Below, one piece after another: positions 29,645 through 46,942 of a stretch of 64,000 bases of DNA (its first letter is position 1; every line of letters starts with the position of its first letter). Source of the DNA: an uncultured Robiginitalea sp. GTDB taxonomy: Bacteria; Bacteroidota; Bacteroidia; Flavobacteriales; Flavobacteriaceae. The notes under the pieces were generated by a model. It saw only the letters and a list, made by a program, of their open reading frames with translations, was not told the DNA's origin and made no database searches. Where the stretch lies: NCBI GenBank assembly GCA_964461555.1, contig CAYWZF010000005.1, positions 930 to 64,929 on the forward strand, written 5' to 3'. The position numbers and the translations under genes are program-made.

Positions 29645-30325
29645 TTATCTGGCAGGGGGCGGGGTATCCTTCCTGGCAGCAATGTACTTTTCGACCACCA
29701 CGGCCGTAATGATCACCAGGTAGAACTGCCCGGCCAGGCCGATCAGCATGGCGGCTTTCCGGGCCACGGGCGTCAGGGGCACGATATCGCCGTAGCCGAT
29801 GGTCATCAGGGTGATGTAGGCATAGTAGAGGAGGGTTTCCGAAAGGGCCCCCGAGGTTCGGTTTGCGGGCAGGCCCGAGAAAGACCCCGGCTGGGCGGCC
29901 TCAATGCCCAGCACCAGGAAAAAGGCGACCAGGCCCAGGGAGACATACCCGCTGATGAGCCCGAAAATGACATTGTGGTTCACTTCCTTTGCCCGCCAGA
30001 CCTGCAAAATGATCTCCACGGTAACCAGGGTATAAAAGCCCGAAAAGAACACGAGGCGCACCAGCTGCAGGCCTCCGCCCGGGTCTTCCCTGTACAGGAG
30101 GCGCGCCAGGTACAGCAGCAGTCCGAAGGCGAATAGCGCAGCATACGACCAAAATGCTTTCCGCCGTGTGGAGATCAGCACGAAACCCGCCGCCAGGTTC
30201 AGGTTGAGGGTGAGGGGAGAGACCCATCGGTCGAAAGCCGGTTCCGGGATGAGCAGGGAGCCGAAAAGGACCATGCAGGCCGTCAGCAGGTACACCTCAA
30301 ACCGGTATTTCCGAAGGTGCTTCAT
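29645..30325 (-). CDS. Potassium channel protein (Ion_trans_2 pore)
   Basis: YYAYITLMTIGYGDIVP selectivity filter; several TM helices; ATG 30325 overlaps the RND stop (TGATG). Confidence 0.85.
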   Translation of the reverse strand: MKHLRKYRFEVYLLTACMVLFGSLLIPEPAFDRWVSPLTLNLNLAAGFVLISTRRKAFWSYAALFAFGLLLYLARLLYREDPGGGLQLVRLVFFSGFYTLVTVEIILQVWRAKEVNHNVIFGLISGYVSLGLVAFFLVLGIEAAQPGSFSGLPANRTSGALSETLLYYAYITLMTIGYGDIVPLTPVARKAAMLIGLAGQFYLVIITAVVVEKYIAARKDTPPPAR

Positions 30326-33300
30326 CAGGTCTCTTCCAGGAACTTGGGGTCGAACCGGTATTCCCGGTAGCCTACCCGATATACTACGCTGTAAAAGGTC
30401 GGGATGAAAATCAGGGTGATGATGGTGCCGAAGAGCAGGCCCACCATGATGGCGACAGCCATGCCCGACCACATCTCGCCCCCGCTGATGTAGAGGGGGA
30501 TCAGCCCCAGCACCGTGGTGAAGGTAGCCAGCAAAATGGGCCTGAAGCGCTGCAGGCAGGCGGTGATCACCGCATCCTGCTCGCTGCGGCCCAGGTCGCG
30601 CTGTTCGATTTCCATGCGGTCGATCAGCACAATGGCGTTGTTGATCACGATCCCCGCCAGGGAGATCACCCCCAAAAAGGGCATAAAGCCGAAGGCTTCC
30701 CGGAAGGCCAGCAGGCCCATGACCACCCCGATGATGGCCAGGGGGATGGTCAGGCACACCATGGCCATCTTGCGGAAGGAGTTGAACTGTATGATCAGCA
30801 GCAGCACGATGATAAAGCCCGAGAGCGGCAGGTACTTGACCACGGCCCCCATGTTTTCGGCCGTATTCTCGGCATCGCCCCCGAAGGTATACCGGTAATC
30901 AGCCCCCCAGTCGGCCTGCTGCTCTTCGAGCCAGGGGCGTATCTCGGCGGTTATGGCCGAGGCGTTGCCGTCGGCGCGCAACTCGCTCGAGACGATCACA
31001 GTGCGGATCAGGTCGAGCCGCTTGATCTTGCTGTACTGCCACTCGGGCACAATGCGGGCCACCTGCAGCAGGGGCACGCTCCGGCCGGTCGACTGGGAGT
31101 AGATGTTCATGGTCTCCAGCGCCTCCAGGCTTTGCTGCTGGTTGCGGTCTTCGCGCATCACGATGGGGATCGACTTGTCCTCTTCCCGGTACTCCCCTGT
31201 GACAAAACCGTCGAGGGCGGTCTGCACCGAGGTGGCAATGTCCTGGTTGCTGATGCCGGCCAGCTGCGCCCGGTTCGGGTCGATATCGACCACGAATTTC
31301 TTGCTTTTGGGCCCCCAGTCGTCTTTCACGTTTTTGGTGGCGGCGATCTGGGAGAGGCGCCCCTTGACCGTGGCGGCGATCTCGGCCAGGCGGTCGGGGT
31401 CGGGGCCCGAGACCTTGATCTCAATGGGCGTGCCACCCCCTCCGGAGCCAAGGGCGCTCACCTTGACGTCCGCATTCGGGAATTCCCGGAAGCAAAAGGC
31501 GTCGAGCCGTTCGATCATGGCGTTGTTCATGCTGAAGTCAGAGGTGTTGACCAGCATGTGCGCATAGCTCGAATTGGCCTCATCCGGGCTGTAGCCCAGG
31601 TCATACGATTCCGGCCCTTCCCCGATATACGACGACCAGTCGATCACCCCCCGGGTGCTTCCCGGGCTGTCCTGCAGGGAGTCGCGGATAAATCCTTCTA
31701 TGGTTCCCACCACTTCTGAGGTGCTTTCGAGGCGGGTGCCCTGGGGCAGGTTGATGTCTACCGTGATCATGTTGCGGTCGCTGTCGGCGAAAAATACGAA
31801 CGGGATTTTGGTAAACCCGTACAGGGAGAGCAAAAACAGGACAAGGATGCCTGCAAGCACCTGGGCCCGATGGGTAAGGGCCCAGACGATCAGCACCTGG
31901 TACCGGACCTTCAGGGCATAGATAACCCGGTCGATGAAGCTTTCCTTTTTCTCCCCGCTATTGGCCTTCAGGAAAAGGTAGCAGAACAGGGTGATGACGG
32001 TCAGGGCCAAAATCCAGGACGAGAGCAGGGCCAGGGAGATGACCACGAAGATCGGCCCGACGATATCGCCCATGGTCGACTGGGCCAGGAAAAAGGACAG
32101 GAAGGCCGCCGAGGTGGTGAGGGTCGAGATCAGCAGGGGCGTAAACAGTTCGGAACAGGCATCGATGGCTGCCTGCTTTTTCGGAACACCCTGTTCCATT
32201 TTGACCATGATGGTTTCGGCCACCACAATGGCGTTGTCGACCATCATCCCCAGGGCCATGATCAGGGCGGCCAGGGTTACCTGGTTGAGCCCCATGCCGA
32301 GCATGCCCATCAGCATGAGGGTCATGATCACCACAATGGGGATCAGGCTGGCGATGATGCTCCCCGAGCGCAGGCCCAGAAACACCAGCATCACCAGCAG
32401 CACGATGCCGACCGACTGCAGCAGGTTTACCACAAAATCGTCGATCTTGACGTCTATGTAGGTGTCTAGCGAAGCCAGCCGCTGCAGCTCGAGGCCCACC
32501 GGAAGCCGCTGCTGCCACTCGGCAACCACCCGGTTGATGTCTTCCCCCAGGGCGATCACGTTGGAGCCTTCCTTCAGGCTCACGTGCAGGGAAATGGCGT
32601 CTTTCCCGTTTACCCGCACCCGCTGTTTGGGCGGGTCGATATAGCCCTTTTTGACCTCGGTAATATCGCCGATAGCCAACAGCTGGCCCTGGCTGCCGCC
32701 AATGGCGATGAGGGTGTTTTCGATATCCTCCACGGAATTGAAATTCCCGGAGGGCTCCAGAATGATGCGCTCGTCCTTCAGGTTTACCTGCCCCCCGGAA
32801 CTCAGGATGTTGGTGGCGGCAATGCTGTTTTTCAGCATGCTGGCCGTGATCCCGTACTGGTTCAGCACGGCATTGTCGAATTCGATGAAGATCCGCTCTT
32901 CCTGGGCCCCGCCCAGCTCCACCTTGGCCGCATCGGGGAGCTTGATCAGGGCATCGCGGATGTCGTCTGCGTAGTCTTTCATCTCCGTATAGGAATACCC
33001 GTCAGAGGTGAGCCCCACCACGATGCCGTAGACCTCGCCGATCCCGTCGTCTTTCAGGTCGGGTACCACCCCCTGGGGCAGGCCCTGTATGCTGGCGAGC
33101 TTGCGGCGCAGGCGGTCCCACACGGCCTGCATCTTTTCGGGCGGCACCTCGTCCTTGAGCTCTACCTTGACCACAGAAAGCTCGGTGCGGGAGGTGCTCG
33201 ACACTTCCTTGAGCTCGGGCAGTTCCTGCGCCACCTTCTCGACCTTGTCGGTGACCAGCAGCTCAACCCGTTCGGGGCTGGCCCCCGGGAAAAACGACAC

Positions 33301-33441
33301 CACGGAGGCCACCCGAACGGTATAGGGGGGCATGCTGTCGCGCGGCAGCGACTGGTAGAGCGTGATGCCGAGCAGCATGATGGTCGCCAGCACCGTGAAG
33401 GTGATGCGGTTCTTCTGGATGGAAAAGGCAGTGAGGTTCAA
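30325..33441 (-). CDS. RND efflux transporter permease subunit
   Basis: 1038 aa; FPGASPERVE, VDNAIVV, RFRPILLAT; TTG start. Confidence 0.93.
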   Translation of the reverse strand: MNLTAFSIQKNRITFTVLATIMLLGITLYQSLPRDSMPPYTVRVASVVSFFPGASPERVELLVTDKVEKVAQELPELKEVSSTSRTELSVVKVELKDEVPPEKMQAVWDRLRRKLASIQGLPQGVVPDLKDDGIGEVYGIVVGLTSDGYSYTEMKDYADDIRDALIKLPDAAKVELGGAQEERIFIEFDNAVLNQYGITASMLKNSIAATNILSSGGQVNLKDERIILEPSGNFNSVEDIENTLIAIGGSQGQLLAIGDITEVKKGYIDPPKQRVRVNGKDAISLHVSLKEGSNVIALGEDINRVVAEWQQRLPVGLELQRLASLDTYIDVKIDDFVVNLLQSVGIVLLVMLVFLGLRSGSIIASLIPIVVIMTLMLMGMLGMGLNQVTLAALIMALGMMVDNAIVVAETIMVKMEQGVPKKQAAIDACSELFTPLLISTLTTSAAFLSFFLAQSTMGDIVGPIFVVISLALLSSWILALTVITLFCYLFLKANSGEKKESFIDRVIYALKVRYQVLIVWALTHRAQVLAGILVLFLLSLYGFTKIPFVFFADSDRNMITVDINLPQGTRLESTSEVVGTIEGFIRDSLQDSPGSTRGVIDWSSYIGEGPESYDLGYSPDEANSSYAHMLVNTSDFSMNNAMIERLDAFCFREFPNADVKVSALGSGGGGTPIEIKVSGPDPDRLAEIAATVKGRLSQIAATKNVKDDWGPKSKKFVVDIDPNRAQLAGISNQDIATSVQTALDGFVTGEYREEDKSIPIVMREDRNQQQSLEALETMNIYSQSTGRSVPLLQVARIVPEWQYSKIKRLDLIRTVIVSSELRADGNASAITAEIRPWLEEQQADWGADYRYTFGGDAENTAENMGAVVKYLPLSGFIIVLLLIIQFNSFRKMAMVCLTIPLAIIGVVMGLLAFREAFGFMPFLGVISLAGIVINNAIVLIDRMEIEQRDLGRSEQDAVITACLQRFRPILLATFTTVLGLIPLYISGGEMWSGMAVAIMVGLLFGTIITLIFIPTFYSVVYRVGYREYRFDPKFLEET

Positions 33442-33475: not shown

Positions 33476-34573
33476 CTAATCGAAGAGCGATACCTCTTGT
33501 CCGTCCAGGAGGGTTTGCAGGCCTGCCGTGGCCACCTTCTGGCCGCGCTCCAGCCCGCTCAGCACTGCAAAGCCCCGGCTGTCGAGGGCCCCCACTTCTA
33601 CAGGCGTGCGCCGCACCACAGGGGTTTCGGGGGTCTCATCGATAACGAATACAAAACGGCCCTGGCTGTCTTCGCCCACAGCCTCGGGGGGTACGGTCAA
33701 AACCATTTCGCTCTGGGGGTCAGAGCCCATGCTAAGGGTCACGTTGGCGGCCATTCCGCTTTTGATCAGCGATTCGGGGTCTTCTACCTGTATGCGCGCC
33801 GGGTACGTGGCCGTGTTGTTGTCGACGGCAGGGGAAAGCTCCGTGATTTTTCCCTTGAATTCCCGTTCGGCTTGGGCAGGCAGCCTGACCGTTACGGGCA
33901 TGCCCGGCGCGATCTCATTGATGATGCTTTCCGGAAAACCCAGGGCGATCTGCATCTCGGTGCCGGCATTCATCACGGCAATGGGCTGGCCGGCGCTGAT
34001 GGTCTCATCCACTTCTGCGCTGATAGAGGTGACCACCCCGTCTTCCGGGGCGTACAGGTAGCCGAAGCGGATCTGCTCCTGCTGTATGGCCACGCTCCGC
34101 TTGGCCGATTCAAAACCCTGCTCGGCTGTCTTATAGGAATTCTTGGCCGATTCAAAATCGGTCAGGGAGGCGCTTCCCTTGGCGTATAAAACGCGTATCC
34201 GGTCAAGGGCCAGTTTGGCGGTGTTCATTTGCGACTCGGCGCTGCTCTGCGAGGCCAGGGCGCTTTCGTAGTTCAGGCGGGCAGTCACATTGTCGAGGCG
34301 GGCGAGCATTTCCCCCTTTTTTACCCGCTGCCCGAGCTTGATGTTCAGTTCGGTGAGGATGCCGCCCGAGCGGAAGCTCAGGTTGATGATCTTCTCGGTA
34401 CGGGCCGTGCCGCTGAAGGTCCTGACATCCGATCCCTGGCGGTAATCCACTGTGGTGTACTTCACTGGGCGAAGGGGTGGGGCCGGGGCCTGTCCGCCCC
34501 CGCCGCAGGAAGCCAGCAACAGCAGGGCGGTCAGGGCAGTTGCGAAAAACAGGTGGGTCACTCTCATGCTCAT
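33476..34573 (-). CDS. RND periplasmic adaptor (membrane fusion) lipoprotein
   Basis: Lipobox LASC, LSFRSGG, GQRVKKGEMLARLD, LYAPEDGVV, SGMAANV. Confidence 0.92.
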   Translation of the reverse strand: MSMRVTHLFFATALTALLLLASCGGGGQAPAPPLRPVKYTTVDYRQGSDVRTFSGTARTEKIINLSFRSGGILTELNIKLGQRVKKGEMLARLDNVTARLNYESALASQSSAESQMNTAKLALDRIRVLYAKGSASLTDFESAKNSYKTAEQGFESAKRSVAIQQEQIRFGYLYAPEDGVVTSISAEVDETISAGQPIAVMNAGTEMQIALGFPESIINEIAPGMPVTVRLPAQAEREFKGKITELSPAVDNNTATYPARIQVEDPESLIKSGMAANVTLSMGSDPQSEMVLTVPPEAVGEDSQGRFVFVIDETPETPVVRRTPVEVGALDSRGFAVLSGLERGQKVATAGLQTLLDGQEVSLFD

Positions 34574-34577
34574 GGGC

Positions 34578-36926
34578 TTAATCTTGTGGGTTATTTTCCA
34601 TGTACTGCTGGAAGCGGTTGCGGAAATCCAGGTTCTCGGCCTCGGTATGCAGCAAAAAGTTATACCCGATGAACCGCTCGAGCTGGATGGCGGTTATCAG
34701 GAAATTGTACGTGGCTCCCGCATTGGCCAGCTGGGCCTGCAGGTAGTTGTTCTGGGCATCGATCAGCTGGATGATGTTCACGGCCCCTTCGCGGTACGAG
34801 GTTTGCACCAGGTCAAGGGACTCCCGGGCGGCGGCCTCGGCCACCTGCGACAGCTTGATGTTGGCAATCTGGTTCATCAGGTTCAGCACCCCCTGGTTCA
34901 CGTTGCGCGAAATGGCCAGCTCGAGGTTCTGGCGGTCGATCTCGATCTGCTCCATCTGGATGCGGGCGCTCTGCCGGTTGAGCTCTGTTTTGTACTGGTT
35001 GAACAGGGGCAGGCGGATGTTCACCCCCATGCTGTAGAAACCGGCCGGATCCAATTCGGTGCTGCCCTGCCCCCACTGGTTGAAGTTTTGGTCGTAGGCG
35101 GCCTGGATGCCCACGGTGGGCAGAATGCGCCCCAGCGCATTTCGTTTGTAGTTCTTTTCGACCGCCTGAAAGGCGTACGACAGGGCTTCGAGCTCGGGGG
35201 AGTTGAGCCGGGCCTCTTCGATGAGGAAGGCGGCAAAGGGCTCCCGGTACTGGGGGTGCTCGAGGATTTCGGCCAGCTGCCTGTAATCGTAGGCGGCAAA
35301 GACCCCTTCCCCCATCACGGCTTCGGCCACCTCAATGTCTTTCTCAATGGGGTTGTTCAAAAACTGGTTGATGTCGATGTACGACTGTTCCAGGGCATTG
35401 ATCGATTCGACCAGGGTAAGGGTATTCTGTGCCATCTGGCTCCGAAACCGCAAAACGTCGGTCTTGCCGGCCTGCCCGGCCTCGAAGTTCTGTTCAGCGA
35501 TCTTCAGGTTTTCGCGCGTGAGCATCAGGTTCTGGTTCTGGATCTTCACGTTCATTTTGTTGAGCAGGGCGTTGAAGTACAGGCCGGAACCTTCGAGGAT
35601 GGCATCGAGCTGGGAGGCGTCCAGGTTCGATTGCTCAGCCAGCTGCAAATTGCGCTGCACGGCGATATTAAGGTTGGCGTCGGGGGAGAAGACCGTTTGC
35701 TGCAGGGCCAGGTTGCCGTCGGTCCGGTACTCGGGCCTTAAAGGGGCAAAAGCCGCGTCGCCCTCCACCATTTGCGCCGAGGCTGAGGCGCTCACATTGG
35801 GCAGGTAGTCGCTTTTGGCCTGGCGCACGTCTTGCTGGCTCAGCTGTACGTCCTTTTCACGCGATTGCAGCCCCAGGTTTCGCTCCAGGCCTCCCTGTAT
35901 GATGTCAAGGAGGGTGTAGCTGTCAGAGGGGGTTGGCTTGTCGAGCGACCCCAGAAACCGCGTCTTGCCGATCAGGCTGAAACCCAGGGGCAGGCCGATT
36001 TTCTGGGCGGTTTCATAGTTAACGGTTAGCTCTCTTCCGAAATCGACCCATACGGGCAGCTCGCCCAGGGAAGCCCCGTTCACCCAGGAATCTACCGTAA
36101 GGGCCATGCGCCTCAGGAATTGCTCCACAATCTTGTCGTTGCGGTTGGTTGCCAGCAACCCAAGAGCCACGTCTTCTACGGTGGTGTTGGTGAACGTGGG
36201 GATGCGCCGTCCGATCAGGGCATCGGCAAGTGCTTTGATCTCGTGGTCAGGGAGCAATTGCCCCCCTGCCAGGTACAGGGCGTCGAGCCCCTCCAGATTA
36301 TCCAGGATATCCTCAGTGCCGGTAAAGGGGATCAGGCGGTAGTTCTGCCCCTGCATGATCCGCTCAAAGGCCTCTTTGACGGGGAGGGTTTCGGCAACCC
36401 TGGCCTCTATGGCAATCCCGACATTGCTGAACTGTGTAAGTTCGCGCAGGGTTGACAGGTCTTCCGCATACGACTGTATGTCGATCAGGTAGGTGAAATT
36501 GGCAATACCGCTCTGGGGGCGGTCGGGGTCGAACGGGGCAACCTCTATGTTGGTGGTCCCGAACAGGATGGTGGGAAGCGGATACGCCTGCCGCTCGCGA
36601 AGCATGCGGCTGCTCACATATCCGAAGGCCATGATGAGGTCGGCCTGGCTATTGGCGAGCTGCTCGTAGTTCGCCCGGGCCTTTCCCAGGTCATAATCGT
36701 TGAACAAACGCAGGTTCTCAGGGAATTCCAGGGTGGCGTCTTCCCCTACCACGGCTTTGATTTCTTCCTGCAGCCTGCCCAGAATGGCGCCGGATTCCTC
36801 GTTGTATGTGTCGGCGAGAATGCCGATCTGGTAGTTGGGTTTTTCCTGGGCACAGAGCGGGGTGGCCAGTATGATTACCCCCAGGAAAAGCGACTTTAAA
36901 CGGGTCATAGACGAATACAGGGTCAT
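34578..36926 (-). CDS. TolC family outer-membrane efflux protein with N-terminal ABC-type substrate-binding domain
   Basis: 782 aa; aa ~30-325 resemble ABC_sub_bind (ELPV..LTVNYETAQKIGL); aa ~335-770 two OEP repeats (AKSDYLPNVS, YREGAVNIIQLIDAQ). Confidence 0.85.
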   Translation of the reverse strand: MTLYSSMTRLKSLFLGVIILATPLCAQEKPNYQIGILADTYNEESGAILGRLQEEIKAVVGEDATLEFPENLRLFNDYDLGKARANYEQLANSQADLIMAFGYVSSRMLRERQAYPLPTILFGTTNIEVAPFDPDRPQSGIANFTYLIDIQSYAEDLSTLRELTQFSNVGIAIEARVAETLPVKEAFERIMQGQNYRLIPFTGTEDILDNLEGLDALYLAGGQLLPDHEIKALADALIGRRIPTFTNTTVEDVALGLLATNRNDKIVEQFLRRMALTVDSWVNGASLGELPVWVDFGRELTVNYETAQKIGLPLGFSLIGKTRFLGSLDKPTPSDSYTLLDIIQGGLERNLGLQSREKDVQLSQQDVRQAKSDYLPNVSASASAQMVEGDAAFAPLRPEYRTDGNLALQQTVFSPDANLNIAVQRNLQLAEQSNLDASQLDAILEGSGLYFNALLNKMNVKIQNQNLMLTRENLKIAEQNFEAGQAGKTDVLRFRSQMAQNTLTLVESINALEQSYIDINQFLNNPIEKDIEVAEAVMGEGVFAAYDYRQLAEILEHPQYREPFAAFLIEEARLNSPELEALSYAFQAVEKNYKRNALGRILPTVGIQAAYDQNFNQWGQGSTELDPAGFYSMGVNIRLPLFNQYKTELNRQSARIQMEQIEIDRQNLELAISRNVNQGVLNLMNQIANIKLSQVAEAAARESLDLVQTSYREGAVNIIQLIDAQNNYLQAQLANAGATYNFLITAIQLERFIGYNFLLHTEAENLDFRNRFQQYMENNPQD

Positions 36927-38692: not shown

Positions 38693-40024
38693 TTACGGCT
38701 GAAGGCCGAGCGCCTGTATGGCGGGCCCGTCCTTGTCGTAGTGGTAGCCCCTCCAGAAGAACCCGTTGGTCTGGAATTTCCAGACTACCTCCCCGGCTTC
38801 GGTGACTTCCCAGAATCCGAAGTCCCCCTCGGTGATCAGCCGGTTGCCGTTGGGAAGGAGGTCTACCCCTGAAACCCTTCCCGAGAAAAGGGTCGGGTCG
38901 GTAAAACTCCACACTACCTCGGGTTCGTTGTCGGCATTGGCCAGAAGGCCGGGCTGATTGGGTAATTTGAGTTCGTAGGCGGTAGATTGTTCGATGCTCA
39001 GCCCGTTGGCGAACACCAGCATATTCCCTTTTTTGTCGCCTGACAGGAGATTGGGGTGGTGGTTCCGGTCAAAGAGCCGCGTGCCCTGGGGGTTGTCATA
39101 GGCTTCGGGGTTGCCGAAACGGTAGACCAGGTCGCCCCCCCGCCCGAAGTTGCCCCCGGTGCTGCCCCGGGCTTCTTCTGTCGTGGTGCTGTGGTCGATC
39201 ACCCACATCTCGCTGTAGAAATTGGCGCTTATGTAGATCAGGTCGTTTTCGGCATCGTAGGCGATGCCATTGGCGTGGCTGATGTCTCCGGGGATTTCAC
39301 CTCCCTGGAAGTAATTGAAATCGATGCGCTCGGGGTGTTCGGCGATTACCCCGTAATTTGCCCGGGCCGGGTCGAAATCCTGGATGAGGTGGTCCCACAT
39401 GTGCCACTCCCACACGATCTGGTCGGTGGTCGGGTCGATTTCATAGATCGCGTCGTAGATGACCGGGGTTCCGCCCGAGTACCCGGCCGCCGTCGCTTCT
39501 TCTTCGGGCCTTTTCTGCCAGCTCATGAAAATGATATTTCCGTTGGGCAGCATTTCCAGGTCGTGGTGCGCTATCTGGTTTTCATCAGATTGCACATAGC
39601 TCCATTCAATGGCCCCGTCTTTGTCGAGGATGGCGAGCTTGCCACCGAAACCGCCTATCTGGATCTGGGGGTCTTCGGCTTCGAGCATGGCCAGGATCTT
39701 CCCGTTTTCCATCAGGTGGGCGTCGTTGCCCAGCCTTTTCCCCTCCATATTCCATTCAAAGACCACTGAGGTCTTTTTGTCCATGAGGTATACCCGGTTG
39801 GCGGCCGCATCGTTGACCAGGGTGTAGCCGTCATAGAATTTGGCCGGTTTATATACCGTCAGGCCTTCCACGAGGGGAATCTCTTCTTCTCCCTGCCCGT
39901 CCGGATCGGGACTTTCGGTGCCCGGGGGCACGCCGGTATTGTTCCCGTCATCAGAGGAGCAGGCAGACAGGAAAAGCAGCAGGGCGCAGGTGAGCCCCGG
40001 AAGGAGGATGAAGGATCGTTTCAT
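38693..40024 (-). CDS. Aryl-sulfate sulfotransferase-like beta-propeller lipoprotein
   Basis: Lipobox LSAC; HHDLEMLPNGNI, SHANGI, VWEWHMWDH, LPNGNRLITEG. Confidence 0.78.
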   Translation of the reverse strand: MKRSFILLPGLTCALLLFLSACSSDDGNNTGVPPGTESPDPDGQGEEEIPLVEGLTVYKPAKFYDGYTLVNDAAANRVYLMDKKTSVVFEWNMEGKRLGNDAHLMENGKILAMLEAEDPQIQIGGFGGKLAILDKDGAIEWSYVQSDENQIAHHDLEMLPNGNIIFMSWQKRPEEEATAAGYSGGTPVIYDAIYEIDPTTDQIVWEWHMWDHLIQDFDPARANYGVIAEHPERIDFNYFQGGEIPGDISHANGIAYDAENDLIYISANFYSEMWVIDHSTTTEEARGSTGGNFGRGGDLVYRFGNPEAYDNPQGTRLFDRNHHPNLLSGDKKGNMLVFANGLSIEQSTAYELKLPNQPGLLANADNEPEVVWSFTDPTLFSGRVSGVDLLPNGNRLITEGDFGFWEVTEAGEVVWKFQTNGFFWRGYHYDKDGPAIQALGLQP

Positions 40025-41050: not shown

Positions 41051-41983
41051 TTAGTTTACGGGCTCGTTACACAGGTTGAGCGGAATTGTTCCGGCCGGGA
41101 AGCGAGGTCCGCCCTGGGCTACCACGTTACCGCTGGGAGAGGTGATCTTGAAGAGAATCTCGCCCCAGAAGTCGCCCGGGAAGTTCCATACGGCAGAGGT
41201 GGTTCCGGCAGGGATCGTCACAATGGCGGTACCTGCACTCAGCTCATCCACACAATCGTAGTTGTTGGCTTCGTAGGGAGTACACAGACCCACTTCAAAG
41301 ACGGTGCCGTCGTTCAGGGTAACAGTGATGCCAGGCCCACCGTTACCGGTAGTAGTCTGCCATCCGTCGCCGTAGGTATCTTCCATTTCCACGATCCAGT
41401 CGCCCGGGGTGGGAGCGAATTCGCATACCACCAGAGAGCTGAAGGAATAGGGCGAAGAGTAGAACCCACCAAGGGCTGCCACGTTTCCGTTGGCACTGCC
41501 CGGCCCGAAGGAACGGCCGTCAGTCAGGGTTACAGTCATGCCGAGCGTGAAGCGGTCGCCCCCGTTGATCTGGTCAGCGGTGAGGCCGAGTGCGCTCAGG
41601 GCCTCAGCAAGGGTATAGCTGAACGTGGCCACAGGCAACCCGAAACTGCTGGTTCCGAAATCGGCAGGGGTCAGGGTGGTGCCAATGGCTACCGGTCCGG
41701 CGCTTTCATTGGCCCCATCCTCGCTGTCGTTATCCGTAAAAGCGATGGTAAAGTTTACGGTGCTCAGGGTCTCGGGTTTCTGACCGTCGAATTCGAAGGT
41801 CACTGAAGCGCTTGACGAAGTGTCAGCCTTGTTCAGCGAGGCACCTGAGCTTGATGTAATTCTCAGGAATGCCCCGGTCTCAACCCCGTCGAACACTTTA
41901 TCTATGGTCTTGTCATCGCTGCTGCAACCTGTAAGGCCGAAGATAACGAGGACGGATAGATATTTATAGATTACTTTTTTCAT
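41051..41983 (-). CDS. SusCD-associated surface lipoprotein
   Basis: Lipobox LTGC followed by SSDDK; Ser/Thr/Gly-rich beta domains; C-terminal DTYGDGW domain with four Cys. Confidence 0.75.
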   Translation of the reverse strand: MKKVIYKYLSVLVIFGLTGCSSDDKTIDKVFDGVETGAFLRITSSSGASLNKADTSSSASVTFEFDGQKPETLSTVNFTIAFTDNDSEDGANESAGPVAIGTTLTPADFGTSSFGLPVATFSYTLAEALSALGLTADQINGGDRFTLGMTVTLTDGRSFGPGSANGNVAALGGFYSSPYSFSSLVVCEFAPTPGDWIVEMEDTYGDGWQTTTGNGGPGITVTLNDGTVFEVGLCTPYEANNYDCVDELSAGTAIVTIPAGTTSAVWNFPGDFWGEILFKITSPSGNVVAQGGPRFPAGTIPLNLCNEPVN

Positions 41984-41995
41984 TGCGTGCATTTT

Positions 41996-43642
41996 TTAAT
42001 TTGATTTGACGGGAGTTGAATCGGTATCCCAGAAAACCTTGGAGGTAACTCCCGACTTTTGGGGTACGGACGAGTTGTTGTTCACAAAGTTTGCCGGATA
42101 GAAGAACGAATTGATGAACTCCCCGGGGTTTGGCTCGATGTTCGGCTGCAGGTTGCTCGGGAATTTGGTCCTCCGGTAGAAGTTGTACCCTTCAAGTCCG
42201 TTGCCGTACAGTGCCGTGAAGAACTCGCGTCCGAGTACGTTCCAGCCGCCTTCAGGGTCGTCGTCAAACGCAGCGTCGATAAGGGCCGCATGGGCTTCTA
42301 TATCGGCGGTGGTCGGAGCAAAGGACAGGTCGGCGCCCGCGTCGATGGGCCCGAAGGACACCACCTTATTCACTGATATATTCACGCCTTCAAGCATAGC
42401 GTCTTTGGCACCGGCTACATCTCCGGCAGCCAGGCGCCTTTCAGCCAGCATGAACCAGGATGAAGAGGCCAGCATGATCGGGGTTACCCCGGCTCCGCCT
42501 CCACCGCCTCCGATCAGCTGCCCGTCAAAGGTGCTGTCGTCAAACTTCCCGCCGAAGGGATAAACCCCTACGGTAGTGCGAAGGAAGCCGTCGGGGGGAG
42601 TACCCTCGTTGTTCCCGTGATCGCGGCCCCAGTAGCCGTTTGGCAGGCCACAGAAGGGGAAGCCATCGTAGTGGGTCGGGGGCTCCTGCAGGGAGCACTG
42701 CAGGGTCTCCAGGGCGGGATCAGACCCGTCCTGACCCGGAGTGACCTCATTCTGGCGGTAGTAGTAATACCGGATACGCGGGTCGTTATTCACGCTCATG
42801 TAATTCATCAGGTCAATCGACATATAGTCGGCAGCACCTCCTGAAGGGGCGTAGTTACGGCCGTACCGCGGGTGGCGGGTGTCGGGCTGAACCACGTTGG
42901 TTCCCCAGGCGAACTGGAAGTCATCGGCAGTGGCGTTGATGAAGTTACCTGAATTCACGATCGCGTCGAAAGCGGCCAGGGAAGACCCGTTGGTAGAAAC
43001 CCGGGTATTCATGAAAAGGCGCATCTTCAGGGTGTTGCAGGCCCTGATCCAGGCGTCGGCATCCCCGTCGTAGAAGAAATCGTTCTGCGGCAGGGCGGCG
43101 CTTGTCCTGTTGAAGTTGCTGATGGCCTCGTCGAGTAAACCAATGGCTACCTCATAGATGCCAGCACCGGAATCAACATTAGGGTTGAAGTTGTCAGCCC
43201 CCTGATTGGCCTCGGAAAAAGGCACATCTCCGAAGAAATCCACCAGGGAGGTGATCATGAAGGCTTTCATGAACTGCCCCATCCCGACGTGATACCACAG
43301 GTTGGATTCCTCGGCAACCGGGGTCATGGCGTTGATGTCGGTAAACATTTCGGTATAGGCTGTTTCCCAAATACCGTCGAAAGAGTTCGGCTGGTAGTTG
43401 TTCACATAGCTACGGCCGAACATGTATTCGATACGGACCAGCTGAGCGGCTGTTTCGCCCATGCTTTCCACGTTGCGTGCGAAATCTTCTTGGATGCCGT
43501 TCAGCAGGAAGTCCGGGCTCGCCTGATCAGGAGACAGGGCATTCGGATTCTTTGTCAGATCCAGGTTTGTGGTTTCGCAGGACTGGAGCATAAACAATCC
43601 CAGGGCTCCCACGACACAAAGTTTGTTAAACAATATTTTCAT
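41996..43642 (-). CDS. susD: SusD/RagB family nutrient-binding lipoprotein
   Basis: Lipobox LQSC, NPN, DFFGDVPFSEA, DPR, YNFYRRT, KVFWD. Confidence 0.9.
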   Translation of the reverse strand: MKILFNKLCVVGALGLFMLQSCETTNLDLTKNPNALSPDQASPDFLLNGIQEDFARNVESMGETAAQLVRIEYMFGRSYVNNYQPNSFDGIWETAYTEMFTDINAMTPVAEESNLWYHVGMGQFMKAFMITSLVDFFGDVPFSEANQGADNFNPNVDSGAGIYEVAIGLLDEAISNFNRTSAALPQNDFFYDGDADAWIRACNTLKMRLFMNTRVSTNGSSLAAFDAIVNSGNFINATADDFQFAWGTNVVQPDTRHPRYGRNYAPSGGAADYMSIDLMNYMSVNNDPRIRYYYYRQNEVTPGQDGSDPALETLQCSLQEPPTHYDGFPFCGLPNGYWGRDHGNNEGTPPDGFLRTTVGVYPFGGKFDDSTFDGQLIGGGGGGAGVTPIMLASSSWFMLAERRLAAGDVAGAKDAMLEGVNISVNKVVSFGPIDAGADLSFAPTTADIEAHAALIDAAFDDDPEGGWNVLGREFFTALYGNGLEGYNFYRRTKFPSNLQPNIEPNPGEFINSFFYPANFVNNNSSVPQKSGVTSKVFWDTDSTPVKSN

Positions 43643-43669
43643 GATATATCGTCTTTGTTTTAATTAGAA

Positions 43670-46600
43670 TTAAAAGGATGCTTTTACACTGAACCCATAT
43701 CTCTTCGAGCTGGGACCGTTCAGGTAGTCGAAGCCTTGTCCGAGACCTACACCAAGGCCGGCCACGTTCGGGTCGAAATTGGCGCTTTTCGGCATATTGA
43801 AGGCCTCAAACCACATGTTAAAGCCGGTGACGGTAAAGCTCAGGGAGCCGAAAGGCGTTTTCTCCAGGGCTTTGCTCGGTACAGAGTAGCCCAGGGAGAC
43901 CTCTTGCAGCCTCAGGTGCGTGGCGTCGTAAACCTGCAGTTCAGCGGGGCCGAATACCACGTTGTTGAAGTAGTAGTCGGAGTTGTTGATCTGAACAGTG
44001 TTCGGGTTGCCATCGGGGCCGTTACCCGGCAGGATGAACGAACGCTCGCGGTCAGCGGTGTCTTCGATGAGACCCCGGCCGAGCAGCGTGGCCACGGTAC
44101 TGGTCCAGATGTCGCCGCCCTGCTGGTAGTTGAGCAGGAAGCTCAGGCTGAAATTCTTGTACGAGAAGGTGTTGTTGACGTTAGCCGTCCAGTCGGGGTT
44201 CGGGTTCCCGATGATCGGCAGGCGGCCGTTTTCGTCAACTTCTTCGGCGATGTAGTTACCAGCGGCATCTACGCGGAACTCCCCGTTCTCGTCCCGGGCA
44301 ATCCGGCTACCCACCAGGGTTCCGAGTTGTTCCCCTACGATGGCGGCGTTCCCCTGGTTGGAGAAACCGGCGAAGACGATGAGGTCAGTGTCCTGTCCAA
44401 GGTCTTTCACGATGGAGTTGTTGGAGTTGAAGTTACCATTGATGCTCCATTTGAAATCACCTTCTGAGAACGGATAGATTCCGAGGTCTACCTCGATCCC
44501 TTTACCTTCAATCTTACCGACGTTGGTAGCGATTACGGTACCACCGGTAGCGGGGTCGAGCGGACGGTCTACGATCAGGTCGTTGGTGATCCGCTTGTAG
44601 AGGGAAACATCAAGAGAAACAAAGTTGTTGAACAGGCGTGATTCCAGACCCACTTCAAACTCGGAGTAACGCTCCGGCAGGATGTTCGGGTTGGCCACAC
44701 GGTTCGATACGGTGTTGGTAACCACGGTTTGCCCGTCGCCGTTGATGAAGTCCTGGGTGTCGAGGAACAAGTCAACAGAGATTGGGTATGCCGGAGCAAA
44801 ACCTGCTGATTCCCCGTAACCGCCGCGCAGTTTCAGGAAGTTGATGCGCAGGGCATCGTTCCAGGTGCCTCCCAGGCTGGTGGGCACGAACGAGAAGCTG
44901 GCCCCTTTGTAGAACAGGGAGCGGTTGGCCCGGGCCTGGTTAGATACCCAGTCGTTCCGTCCGTTCAGGGTCAGGTACAGGAAATCCTTGTAACCGAAGT
45001 CGACCTGGCCGAAGAGACCGGCGATGTTCTTTTTCTCGGTATACTGGATTTCATTTTGCAGGTCGAAGTTGAAGTGGCGCAGTACGCCAAACACGTTCTG
45101 ACCGGTAGAAGACACACCCTGCTGGTCAAAGATGGTGCTCCGGGTAGTACCTCCGGCGTTGAAATTCATATCCAGGTCTTCGGTAAGGTCAAAGCTACCG
45201 TTGAGGATGATGCTGTGGTCCCAGATGGTGTTGTTGTTGTCCCAGGTGTCGAGACGACCGCTTTGAGTGGGGGTGTCACCACTGGTACCCCCCCTGTTCT
45301 GGAAGTTGGTGTTGCGCTCGTTGTACACGTCGTAACCCAGACGATACAGCAGGTTCAGGTTTTCATTGATGTCGTACTGGAAAGACATGTTCCCGAAAGC
45401 CCGGTTGGTCAGCTGCTTGTTGCCAGAGTTGGCCACCGTCCAGCGGGGGTTCTGAATGTCGTTCCCCTGACGGTAGTACACGCTGCCTCCGGTGATCGGG
45501 TTTTCCCAGGGAAGGCCCGCAAGGTCCACAGAGATAGGCGTAAAGAACAAGTGTCCGTAAACCGACGAACCGGTTCCGAAAGAACCGTTACCGGTAGAAG
45601 CCGCCACAGGAGGCGATTTGAAATCGGTACGGGAGTAATTCATGGTACCCGACACGGTGAACTTGTTGCTCAGCTGGGCGCGTCCCCCTACAGAGAGGTT
45701 GTTCCGCAGCAGGCGGTTTCCAGGGGTAAACCCGTTGTCTTCGAGGTGGCCCCCGCTCACGTTGTACGAAATCTTGCCGTCGTCAGAAGAGCCGTTGGCG
45801 TTGATAGAAAGGTTGGTAACCGTTCCGGTGCGGAAAAAGTTCTCAACACTGTTATACGGCTTGAACTCGTAACGGGCGTTGGCCAGTTCCGGGAATGCAG
45901 CCGGAATTCCGGTAGCCGCAGAGGCAGTGGAATACGGGTGGCGGATGGTGCCGGTGGCCGGATCGAGCTGGTAAATGGACGGGAAGTTGGCAGGGTTGGT
46001 GTAGCTGGCCTGTCCGCTGCGGGAGAAAGAGGGCCCCCAGTTTGAGAAGAACCAACCGAAACGCTGGTCAAATCCACCTCCATAGGAATTCTGGTAATCG
46101 GGCAGGGAAGCGATCTCGTTGAAGAAGAACGAGGAAGTAACCGTGATCTCAGACTTCTTGGGCCCACCTGCTCCGGCGGCGCCGGCCTTGGTGGTGATCA
46201 GGATCACCCCGTTCTTTCCCTGCTCCCCGTAAAGGGTGGCAGCTGAAAGTCCTTTCAGTACGCTCACGCTGGCGATGGAGTTCGGGTCGAGGTCGAGGAA
46301 GCGGGATGAACCGTTGTTCCCGTCCACGAAGCTGTTGTCGTTAAGCCCATTCCGGGATTGCCCGGTGGTGTTACTGCTGAAGGGCACGCCGTCAACGATG
46401 AAGAGCGGCTGGTTGTCCTGGCTGAACGACTGATAGCCCCGGATGATGATGTTGGTTCCCGAACCGGAGATACCGCTCTGCTGGGTGATGTTCACCCCAG
46501 AGGCCTTACCTCTCAGTACCCGGCCGATATCACCTTCGGTCTTCTCCTCAAGATCTTCGGAGCCTACCGTGGTTACCGCGTATCCAAGGGCTTTTTTCTC

Positions 46601-46942
46601 CCTTTTGATACCCTGGGCGGTTACAACCACCTCTTCGAGGGCCTGGGTGTCTTCCGTCATCTGAACATTGATCGAGTTGGCTGCACCCACGGTCCTCGTC
46701 TCGGCACGCATCCCCAGGTAGGTGTACGTCAGCACATCGCCAACGCCGGCCTGGATGGAATAGTTTCCGTCGAAGTCCGTTTGGGTACCGGAAGTGGTGC
46801 CCTGAACAAGGATGTTAACCCCAGGCAGCGGCAATCCGTCGGCATCGGTAACCGTACCTGAAATCGTTTTGTCTTGCGCAAAGGATATCTGCGCAACCAA
46901 CGCCAAAAACAGCGTTAGGATTCCATTTAATTTTGTTCTCAT
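43670..46942 (-). CDS. susC: SusC/RagA TonB-dependent transporter
   Basis: LPGVNI..TDFDGNY, LEEVVVTA, PLFIVDGVP, VLKGLSAATLYG..GVILITTK, C-terminal YGFSVKASF. Confidence 0.95.
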   Translation of the reverse strand: MRTKLNGILTLFLALVAQISFAQDKTISGTVTDADGLPLPGVNILVQGTTSGTQTDFDGNYSIQAGVGDVLTYTYLGMRAETRTVGAANSINVQMTEDTQALEEVVVTAQGIKREKKALGYAVTTVGSEDLEEKTEGDIGRVLRGKASGVNITQQSGISGSGTNIIIRGYQSFSQDNQPLFIVDGVPFSSNTTGQSRNGLNDNSFVDGNNGSSRFLDLDPNSIASVSVLKGLSAATLYGEQGKNGVILITTKAGAAGAGGPKKSEITVTSSFFFNEIASLPDYQNSYGGGFDQRFGWFFSNWGPSFSRSGQASYTNPANFPSIYQLDPATGTIRHPYSTASAATGIPAAFPELANARYEFKPYNSVENFFRTGTVTNLSINANGSSDDGKISYNVSGGHLEDNGFTPGNRLLRNNLSVGGRAQLSNKFTVSGTMNYSRTDFKSPPVAASTGNGSFGTGSSVYGHLFFTPISVDLAGLPWENPITGGSVYYRQGNDIQNPRWTVANSGNKQLTNRAFGNMSFQYDINENLNLLYRLGYDVYNERNTNFQNRGGTSGDTPTQSGRLDTWDNNNTIWDHSIILNGSFDLTEDLDMNFNAGGTTRSTIFDQQGVSSTGQNVFGVLRHFNFDLQNEIQYTEKKNIAGLFGQVDFGYKDFLYLTLNGRNDWVSNQARANRSLFYKGASFSFVPTSLGGTWNDALRINFLKLRGGYGESAGFAPAYPISVDLFLDTQDFINGDGQTVVTNTVSNRVANPNILPERYSEFEVGLESRLFNNFVSLDVSLYKRITNDLIVDRPLDPATGGTVIATNVGKIEGKGIEVDLGIYPFSEGDFKWSINGNFNSNNSIVKDLGQDTDLIVFAGFSNQGNAAIVGEQLGTLVGSRIARDENGEFRVDAAGNYIAEEVDENGRLPIIGNPNPDWTANVNNTFSYKNFSLSFLLNYQQGGDIWTSTVATLLGRGLIEDTADRERSFILPGNGPDGNPNTVQINNSDYYFNNVVFGPAELQVYDATHLRLQEVSLGYSVPSKALEKTPFGSLSFTVTGFNMWFEAFNMPKSANFDPNVAGLGVGLGQGFDYLNGPSSKRYGFSVKASF

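Follow-up and report, generated by a model that had tools for sequence, protein, structure and literature searches.

Why should an outer-membrane efflux channel carry a periplasmic binding protein at its N-terminus? The question is raised by one gene in the window (the whole stretch of DNA that was analysed, 64,000 nucleotides of contig CAYWZF010000005.1, assembly GCA_964461555.1, from an uncultured Robiginitalea sp.), which encodes a signal peptide, a domain of the PF04392 fold and a TolC channel in a single chain. We find that this fusion is a real and widespread variant of TolC, apparently unstudied, and the answer we prefer, at a probability of roughly one half, is that the fused domain has lost its amino-acid-binding site and forms a rigid structural collar around the periplasmic barrel of the channel. 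The gene and its parts are as follows (window coordinates, with residue numbers of the protein):

34578..36926, minus strand: fusion gene, signal peptide plus PF04392-fold domain plus TolC, 782 aa (ORF list, family scan, AlphaFold)
36849..36926, minus strand: predicted cleavable signal peptide, aa 1-26, non-lipoprotein type, start possibly Met7 (sequence by eye, model helix 8-21)
35943..36842, minus strand: class I periplasmic-binding-protein domain, aa 29-328 (family profiles, fold comparison, alignment columns)
35919..35942, minus strand: short linker, aa 329-336 (AlphaFold model, family alignment)
34644..35918, minus strand: two-repeat TolC/outer-membrane-factor domain, aa 337-761, four barrel strands (two PF02321 matches, Foldseek, model)
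35202..35309, minus strand: helical segment of the equatorial region, aa 540-575, candidate docking site of the N-terminal domain (helices 548-556 and 558-575 in the model, family conservation, coupling G311-Q559, suggestive only)
34593..34643, minus strand: conserved C-terminal helix, aa 762-778, coupled to the equatorial helix via E571-R771 (model, conservation, coevolution)

The fusion gene and its two domains

The gene is a single unbroken open reading frame (ORF) of 782 codons on the minus strand, the plus-strand frame being interrupted by stops. The initial annotation had described one 782-aa ORF with a signal peptide, some 300 residues of alpha/beta sequence and then a full two-repeat TolC starting near 35920, and this layout is borne out: PF02321 is matched by two OEP stretches from aa 343 (E 9e-44, 149.9 bits against a cut-off of 22), the TolC part scoring below the TIGR01844 cut-off. 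The signal peptide was called by eye from its hydrophobic segment, with no lipobox cysteine at +1. The AlphaFold model of the full-length protein (mean predicted local distance difference test, pLDDT, 93.2; predicted TM-score, pTM, 0.85) places membrane strands at 377-386, 400-413, 604-618 and 630-638 together with long periplasmic helices, its C-terminal part matches TolC structures, and TolC entries rank first in Foldseek (7NG9, E 2.5e-18, TM 0.82). The closest named homologues are proteins of Flavobacteriaceae, Robiginitalea among them. The fusion is a genuine gene and not a misassembly, since independent contigs assembled from sequencing runs of other studies (X2 and X3) bridge the domain junction without a gap, and since 114 of 120 homologues among the matches listed are 740-820 aa long.

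The N-terminal domain (N-domain) is a class I two-lobe periplasmic-binding domain of the PF04392 fold. In single-sequence searches the window protein alone gave no PF04392 match and no PDB sequence matching through the N-domain; the assignment rests instead on family profiles, on homologous N-domain fragments (6/37 match PF04392 at E ≤ 0.01) and on the AlphaFold model with its fold search. The family profiles match only 3LKV, 3LFT and 6HNI (3LKV best, E 3e-14), which are phenylalanine-, tryptophan- and tyrosine-binding importer proteins (PMC6816091). The modelled N-domain (pLDDT 95.1) has both lobes and the hinge intact, entries for the same three proteins rank first in Foldseek, and the fold comparison returned Z-scores of 22.6, 21.9 and 21.8 (for 3LKV Z 22.6, root-mean-square deviation 3.8 over 279 residues). 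An ESM Atlas look-up gave PF04392 clusters at 0.88, which we treat as a lead only. The suggestion that this region resembles the PF04392 binding proteins, made from a motif ELPV...LTVNYETAQKIGL (aa 289-312), is thus upheld by family and fold, the window protein itself lying below the Pfam cut-off, and the region does have a binding-protein fold (Z 22.6 to 3LKV). The N-terminal helix of TolC belongs to the periplasmic equatorial belt (PMC8277102), and the N-domain is very likely periplasmic because it precedes that terminus.

The ligand cleft and the position of the domain

Five residues are common to TrpX, SP1069, CD0873 and VC_1101 (T108, A127, T129, D152 and N233; PMC9382623), and by sequence alignment the TrpX residues fall on positions 103, 123, 125, 149 and 222-224 of the window protein, which carries Y103, T125, D149 and G222-Q223-L224 at the mapped ligand sites. 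Among 133 fused members the polar residues are rare: threonine at 103 in 8/133, threonine at 125 in 3/133, aspartate at 149 in 7/133 and asparagine at 222-224 in 8/133. At least three of the four are present in 0/133 fused members versus 15/15 importer-type controls, the latter selected by signature, with 14/15 later found beside an ABC (ATP-binding cassette) permease and ATPase. Across 14 cleft columns the importers show a mean identity of 0.76 against a domain mean of 0.53 (P 0.003), whilst in all four fused groups the same columns fall below the domain mean (P 0.60-0.92). Cleft residues of the N-domain are shifted toward hydrophobic. Conservation within the N-domain is found at Asp39, Glu55, Tyr146, Arg272 and Arg273, of which Asp39 (kept in 128/133 fused members) and Tyr146 are fusion-specific, whilst Arg272 is also present in other PF04392 subgroups. 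Judged by these aligned positions, the aromatic amino-acid-binding site is lost in the fused domains. The initial annotation's proposal that three binding domains per trimer capture substrate or gate the channel by ligand is therefore not supported, as the importer residues are replaced and the cleft shows no extra conservation.

Several features bear on how the domain sits on the channel. N303 and N350 are 45-47 residues apart in 127/133 members. Mean-field coevolution analysis (DCA; 398 sequences, effective number 240-270, five runs) returned plausible strand pairs and E571-R771 as its top pairs; the best interdomain pair was G311-Q559 (rank 2-8 in 4/5 runs), and in the same four runs L328-K475 ranked 4-32. 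Toward the periplasmic tip, T159-A486 ranked 5-51 in 4/5 runs and V177-A486 ranked 25 and 51 in 2/5 runs. A further pair, T322-F494, came from plain mutual information, which was swamped by invariant columns, and was discarded as it is lost under DCA. G311-Q559, L328-K475 and T159-A486 weakly suggest that the N-domain packs on the equatorial helices and along helix H3.

A conserved family and the pumps that it serves

Surveyed across taxa, the fusion is a conserved family of at least ten phyla. A search with the N-domain gave 998 clusters (50% identity, E ≤ 0.001), ordinary PF04392 proteins included, and of the best 149 new clusters 87 were 745-900 aa long, the remainder being fragment-like. 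In genome counts the fusion occurs in 36/201 genomes of the window's family (one per genus, one cut by a contig end), 3/24 of its genus and 20/401 of its phylum (plus one genome with two fragments and one with an unrelated ABC protein), in 10/151 of the phylum of a Desulfobacterales locus (three cut by contig ends) and in 2/401 of the phylum of a Gammaproteobacteria locus. A peptide-pattern search found 263 loci, 80 of which were kept for taxon titles and include Nitrospirota, Nitrospinota, Desulfobacterota-type deltaproteobacteria, Gemmatimonadota, Acidobacteriota, Latescibacterota, Deferribacteres, Gammaproteobacteria, Bacteroidota and others; plasmid records added Campylobacterota and Fusobacteriota. 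Such a patchy spread marks the fusion as an accessory module.

No member lacking the domain was found in the 201 family genomes, the next tier being ordinary TolC at E 1e-46 to 1e-50. Nor was a close stand-alone form of the domain found among 7993 scored candidates, where 20 short matches comprised 18 close fragment-like ones and two weak ordinary PF04392 proteins. All 28 fused domains that were tested fall into a single clade (SH-aLRT 99, quick unrooted tree). The best-scoring stand-alone relatives (370-430 aa, E about 1e-23 to 1e-33) have as neighbours hybrid histidine kinases at L162 and L163, a Cache-SpoIIE phosphatase at L164 or, at L160, L161 and L164, long MFS proteins, none being beside an ABC permease; they too are without the importer signature, and that tree places them between the clade of fused domains and the remaining PF04392 proteins. 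Because of this missing signature and tree position, the N-domain was probably recruited from a non-importer branch of PF04392.

In Cetobacterium somerae, two paralogues of 723-726 aa (L173:7611-9791 and L174:5161-7332) have an N-domain about 55 residues shorter and form a natural erosion series; their N-domain matches the family profile at E 6e-7 or not at all, whilst the TolC half stays in the family (E 1e-92). In three metagenome-assembled loci (L044, L065, L074) the fusion gene is broken by a frameshift or stop, from either decay or assembly error.

Within the window the fusion gene heads an operon of four genes on the minus strand, with gaps of 4, 34 and 2 bp, and a family scan of these neighbours bore out the proposed order of TolC, membrane fusion protein, RND (resistance-nodulation-division) permease and K+ channel:

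33476..34573, minus strand: RND periplasmic adaptor (membrane fusion protein), 365 aa (TIGR01730 E 1e-73, above cut-off)
30325..33441, minus strand: RND permease, 1038 aa, MexK-like (family scan, search against solved structures)
29645..30322, minus strand: small Ion_trans_2 (K+-channel-like) membrane protein, 225 aa, accessory (family scan, neighbourhood comparison)

Against solved structures the permease matches MexK (9XWG, E 1e-168) and 6VEJ, which we take to be TriC (E 4e-148), far ahead of AcrB/MexB (about 1e-54 to 1e-60), and by its nearest solved relatives the pump appears to be of the MexK/TriC-like RND class. The operon is flanked by a divergent rhomboid protease gene upstream and MgsA/RarA downstream, neither of them a regulator, as had been stated of the adjacent genes. 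Promoter and terminator scans were at chance level (5 against 2.5 and 9 against 7.5), and two metatranscriptome runs held scattered 151-base pieces only, which do not demonstrate transcription.

Amongst 99 loci of the family the adaptor lies directly downstream in 68, the order is adaptor-RND-fusion in 5, RND or adaptor genes are adjacent on the other strand in 6, 14 are cut short and 6 show none of these patterns; adaptor and/or RND genes are thus adjacent in 79/85 informative loci, with an ABC exporter in one more. The six without the pattern are two broken frames, three orphans and a locus of a gammaproteobacterial-phylum genome (L168:6888-14375) where the fused channel accompanies an HlyD adaptor, an RbbA-type ABC protein and an ABC-2 permease. 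A plasmid of Sulfuricurvum kujiense (L172:7379-15185) similarly encodes TetR, the fusion, HlyD, RbbA and an ABC permease. The fused channel serves engines as different as MexK-like RND pumps, RND pumps of other types and ABC exporters of the RbbA type. In most loci, as in the window, no dedicated regulator lies directly upstream. Control at the protein level had been argued from this, which is a weak argument, as a regulator stands directly upstream in 7/99 loci (TetR in L022 and L023, MarR in L016, L017, L056 and L091, a sigma-54 activator in L018; 52 of 102 candidates were scanned for this, plus others earlier) as well as the TetR of the Sulfuricurvum plasmid.

An Ion_trans_2 protein of about 220 aa lies near 9/99 loci from several phyla, often adjacent (L012, L029, L032, L055, L074, L092, L095, L102, L108); the window's own genome has one copy, and by a rough estimate chance would give well under one locus in 99. 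We rejected the K+-channel-like gene as a core subunit, since it is near these nine loci only. No signalling family occurs in more than 12 of 100 loci, and the 12-locus cluster pools unrelated kinases. A membrane class III adenylate/guanylate cyclase of 356-359 aa flanks the operon in four Bacteroidota loci of different families:

L012:12569-13648, L016:9595-10665, L021:14563-15642, L062:5870-6940: class III cyclase (neighbourhood scan)

In many Nitrospirales loci (L031, L033-L035, L058, L064, L066, L071, L072, L080) PqiA/MlaD/ABC_trans_aux (PqiABC-like) or MlaE lipid-transport genes lie divergently upstream of the fusion, which may be plain synteny of related genomes. An apparent TolC-adaptor fusion at L088 was rejected as merely a long upstream open frame. 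An ABC permease fused to two tandem PF04392 domains was seen in one Bacteroidota-phylum genome (L024:5727-8039) and several of a Desulfobacterales-centred draw (L133, L135, L136, L139); the L024 protein matched our profile and was excluded from the fusion counts. Two genomes of the same draw share a conserved cluster (L160:5635-14979, L161:5043-14484) of two stand-alone PF04392 proteins, a DUF697 protein, an ABC protein, an SPFH protein and an 800-aa MFS fusion, with a phosphopantetheinyl transferase nearby. Elsewhere in the window, on the minus strand, sequence reading names an arylsulfotransferase-like lipoprotein (38693-40024) and a SusC/SusD-like pair followed by a lipoprotein (41051-46942).

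What the domain may do, and the systems it resembles

As a structural collar, the domain would act as follows. From what is known of TolC, the fusion protein would be exported and would trimerise as an outer-membrane channel, to be opened by the adaptor of the MexK/TriC-like pump so that small hydrophobic compounds are expelled, and three extra domains per trimer would stand in the periplasm. Through its C-terminal helix each might rest against the equatorial helices (aa 557-575), the linker perhaps running along H3 toward the periplasmic end, and together they would brace the trimer and frame the docking site of the adaptor hairpins; protein contacts, not the binding of a small molecule, would be what helps assembly or stability. 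We favour a collar over a nutrient sensor because the usual amino-acid-binding residues are lost and the cleft columns show no extra conservation; the nearly constant linker spacing and the whole-chain pTM of 0.85 argue for a fixed geometry, the weak couplings G311-Q559 and L328-K475 also speak for a collar, and the service of one fused channel to unrelated engines (RND types and RbbA-type ABC) argues for a job intrinsic to the channel. Domain and channel also appear to travel together, as the fused domains form one clade, with no domain-less member in 201 genomes and no close stand-alone form among the 20 short matches. We also count in favour of the collar the erosion of the domain in Cetobacterium, where the TolC half is kept. 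The nearest precedent is YbjP, a lateral accessory domain on TolC, which binds the side of the E. coli channel and for which no allosteric or signalling role was found (PMC13082787).

A number of points weigh against the collar. Ordinary TolCs need none, and stability alone does not explain 300 kept residues. Asp39 is not an importer residue; it stands where the first strand ends, the point at which domains of class I look onto the cleft, and it could bind a ligand or metal. The exchange of polar for hydrophobic residues in the cleft is just as compatible with a ligand that is hydrophobic or specific to a lineage. Alignment, rather than a structure, gave the cleft positions, and the signature was the basis on which the importer controls were picked. 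For the docking site the evidence is pTM plus coevolution in about 240-270 effective sequences, and the pairs G311-Q559, L328-K475 and T159-A486 all vanish in the distant half of the family. Lastly, the nearest stand-alone relatives are located beside sensor proteins.

A broader reading would have this widespread class of TolC carry its own receptor, a Venus-flytrap domain derived from signalling-type PF04392 proteins and set against the periplasmic gate helices, with a ligand, ion or partner protein controlling opening or pump assembly from the outer-membrane side. We hold this tentatively, with the odds clearly against it; if true, a receptor-bearing TolC would be a bacterial counterpart of the clamshell-gated ion channel.

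Narrower, and rather unlikely, is a ligand-sensing gate, in which the clamshell would take up a small molecule or ion from the periplasm, aromatic amino acids excepted, and by closing would shift the H3/H4 coiled coil, priming opening or acceptance of the adaptor. The intact lobes and hinge (pLDDT 95), the nearly invariant Asp39, the weak couplings of T159 and V177 to A486 at the periplasmic tip and the scarcity of dedicated upstream regulators would all suit it. However, cleft conservation does not exceed the rest of the domain even within tight subgroups, the tip couplings are at the edge of noise and absent from the distant half of the family, some loci do have repressors, and the domain is eroded in Cetobacterium.

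We consider it improbable that the domain is a signalling adaptor which, like YfiR, reaches over the periplasm to a sensor or channel in the inner membrane and relays how the pump is assembled or what state the envelope is in. Such a role would fit the hybrid kinases, Cache-SpoIIE phosphatase and long MFS proteins beside the closest stand-alone relatives (and the lack of any ABC permease there), the branching of those relatives next to the fused clade, the K+-channel-like gene near 9/99 loci and the cyclase near four, and the resemblance of YfiR, which acts by protein contact, to 3LFT and 3LKV (Z 11; PMC4655355). Yet no single signalling gene accompanies most loci, a Ser/Thr kinase was not seen among the scanned neighbours or in the Pfam annotation of 120 long matches, and the tree is an unrooted one from a quick search.

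We give little credence to a tethered substrate shuttle, in which the domain would capture hydrophobic periplasmic cargo and pass it to adaptor or pump, the role that CusF plays for CusCBA. The binding-protein fold, the hydrophobic shift of the cleft and a partner pump class that exports hydrophobic compounds are in keeping with it; the pump, however, is about one adaptor length away from the channel, and the short, fixed-length linker means that the domain cannot reach it. The partners are moreover unrelated RND and ABC engines, and MexK admits triclosan by way of a transmembrane tunnel accessible from the cytosol (PMC13450314). Least credible by far are an uptake device serving an ABC importer, for which the solved relatives of the domain are importer components (PMC6816091) but the operon holds export components only, with no ABC permease or ATPase, and the genome (96% complete) contains neither a further PF04392 match nor any hit to the importer permease tested, and an artefact of misassembly or chance read-through, which the junction-bridging contigs and hundreds of full-length orthologues contradict.

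We did not find a fusion of TolC and a binding protein described in the searchable literature, a search outside which supplementary tables and subscription journals fall, and the available portions of a TolC-related review (PMC8277102) and a TolC family survey (PMC8809574) contain no such architecture. Automatic annotation does see both domains, some members being labelled 'outer membrane protein TolC/ABC-type uncharacterized transport system substrate-binding protein' by JGI; elsewhere the labels are plain 'TolC family protein' or 'ABC transporter substrate binding protein', and this mislabelling hides the family in databases. TolC channels have been treated as passive ducts opened by the adaptor alone, and a first lateral partner was reported in 2026 (PMC13082787). 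A conserved family with a 300-residue clamshell in the channel itself, which occurs in cultured, harmless bacteria of marine and fresh waters, lets control of assembly or gating by the outer-membrane component be tested. If the collar is true, it would be a plain example of a scaffold made from a former binding protein, and if sensing is true, a new control point for efflux.

Compared with known systems, the fusion shares with E. coli TolC and other non-lipidated outer-membrane factors (PF02321; 1EK9, 7NG9, 5BUN) the two OEP repeats, four barrel strands and long helices, with a TM-score of about 0.8 over the target, and is encoded with an adaptor and pump. It differs from E. coli TolC in about 300 extra residues before the channel, a conserved equatorial helical segment and a conserved C-terminal helix, at 17-19% identity. 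With VC_1101 (3LKV), SP1069/TrpX (3LFT) and CD0873 (6HNI) it has in common a two-lobe fold of class I that extends through the entire domain (Z 21.8-22.6) and motifs at the C-terminal end, but unlike them it lacks the ligand residues T/T/D/N, is joined to an outer-membrane channel and has no ABC permease or ATPase partner. Among solved structures its RND permease comes closest to MexK (9XWG) and 6VEJ, a likeness to the MexJK-OprM/OpmH and TriABC-OpmH pumps of Pseudomonas aeruginosa, whereas in the window the channel gene belongs to the operon and its product has the additional domain; MexK itself is a narrow-spectrum triclosan pump (PMC13450314). YfiR of YfiBNR (PF13689) is likewise periplasmic, related to 3LFT/3LKV and in contact with an outer-membrane protein, but it is free, about half the size and controls a diguanylate cyclase (PMC4655355), whilst across about 100 loci compared the fusion has no conserved cognate inner-membrane sensor encoded alongside. 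The TolC-YbjP complex of E. coli (9TG4, 9V52) also has a globular accessory domain attached to TolC from the periplasm, with no allosteric role found for YbjP, which is a separate lipoprotein of another fold, sits between the equatorial domain and the membrane and is limited to some Enterobacterales (PMC13082787). The fused domain, in contrast, is covalently joined to its channel, has a binding-protein fold and is found in many phyla.

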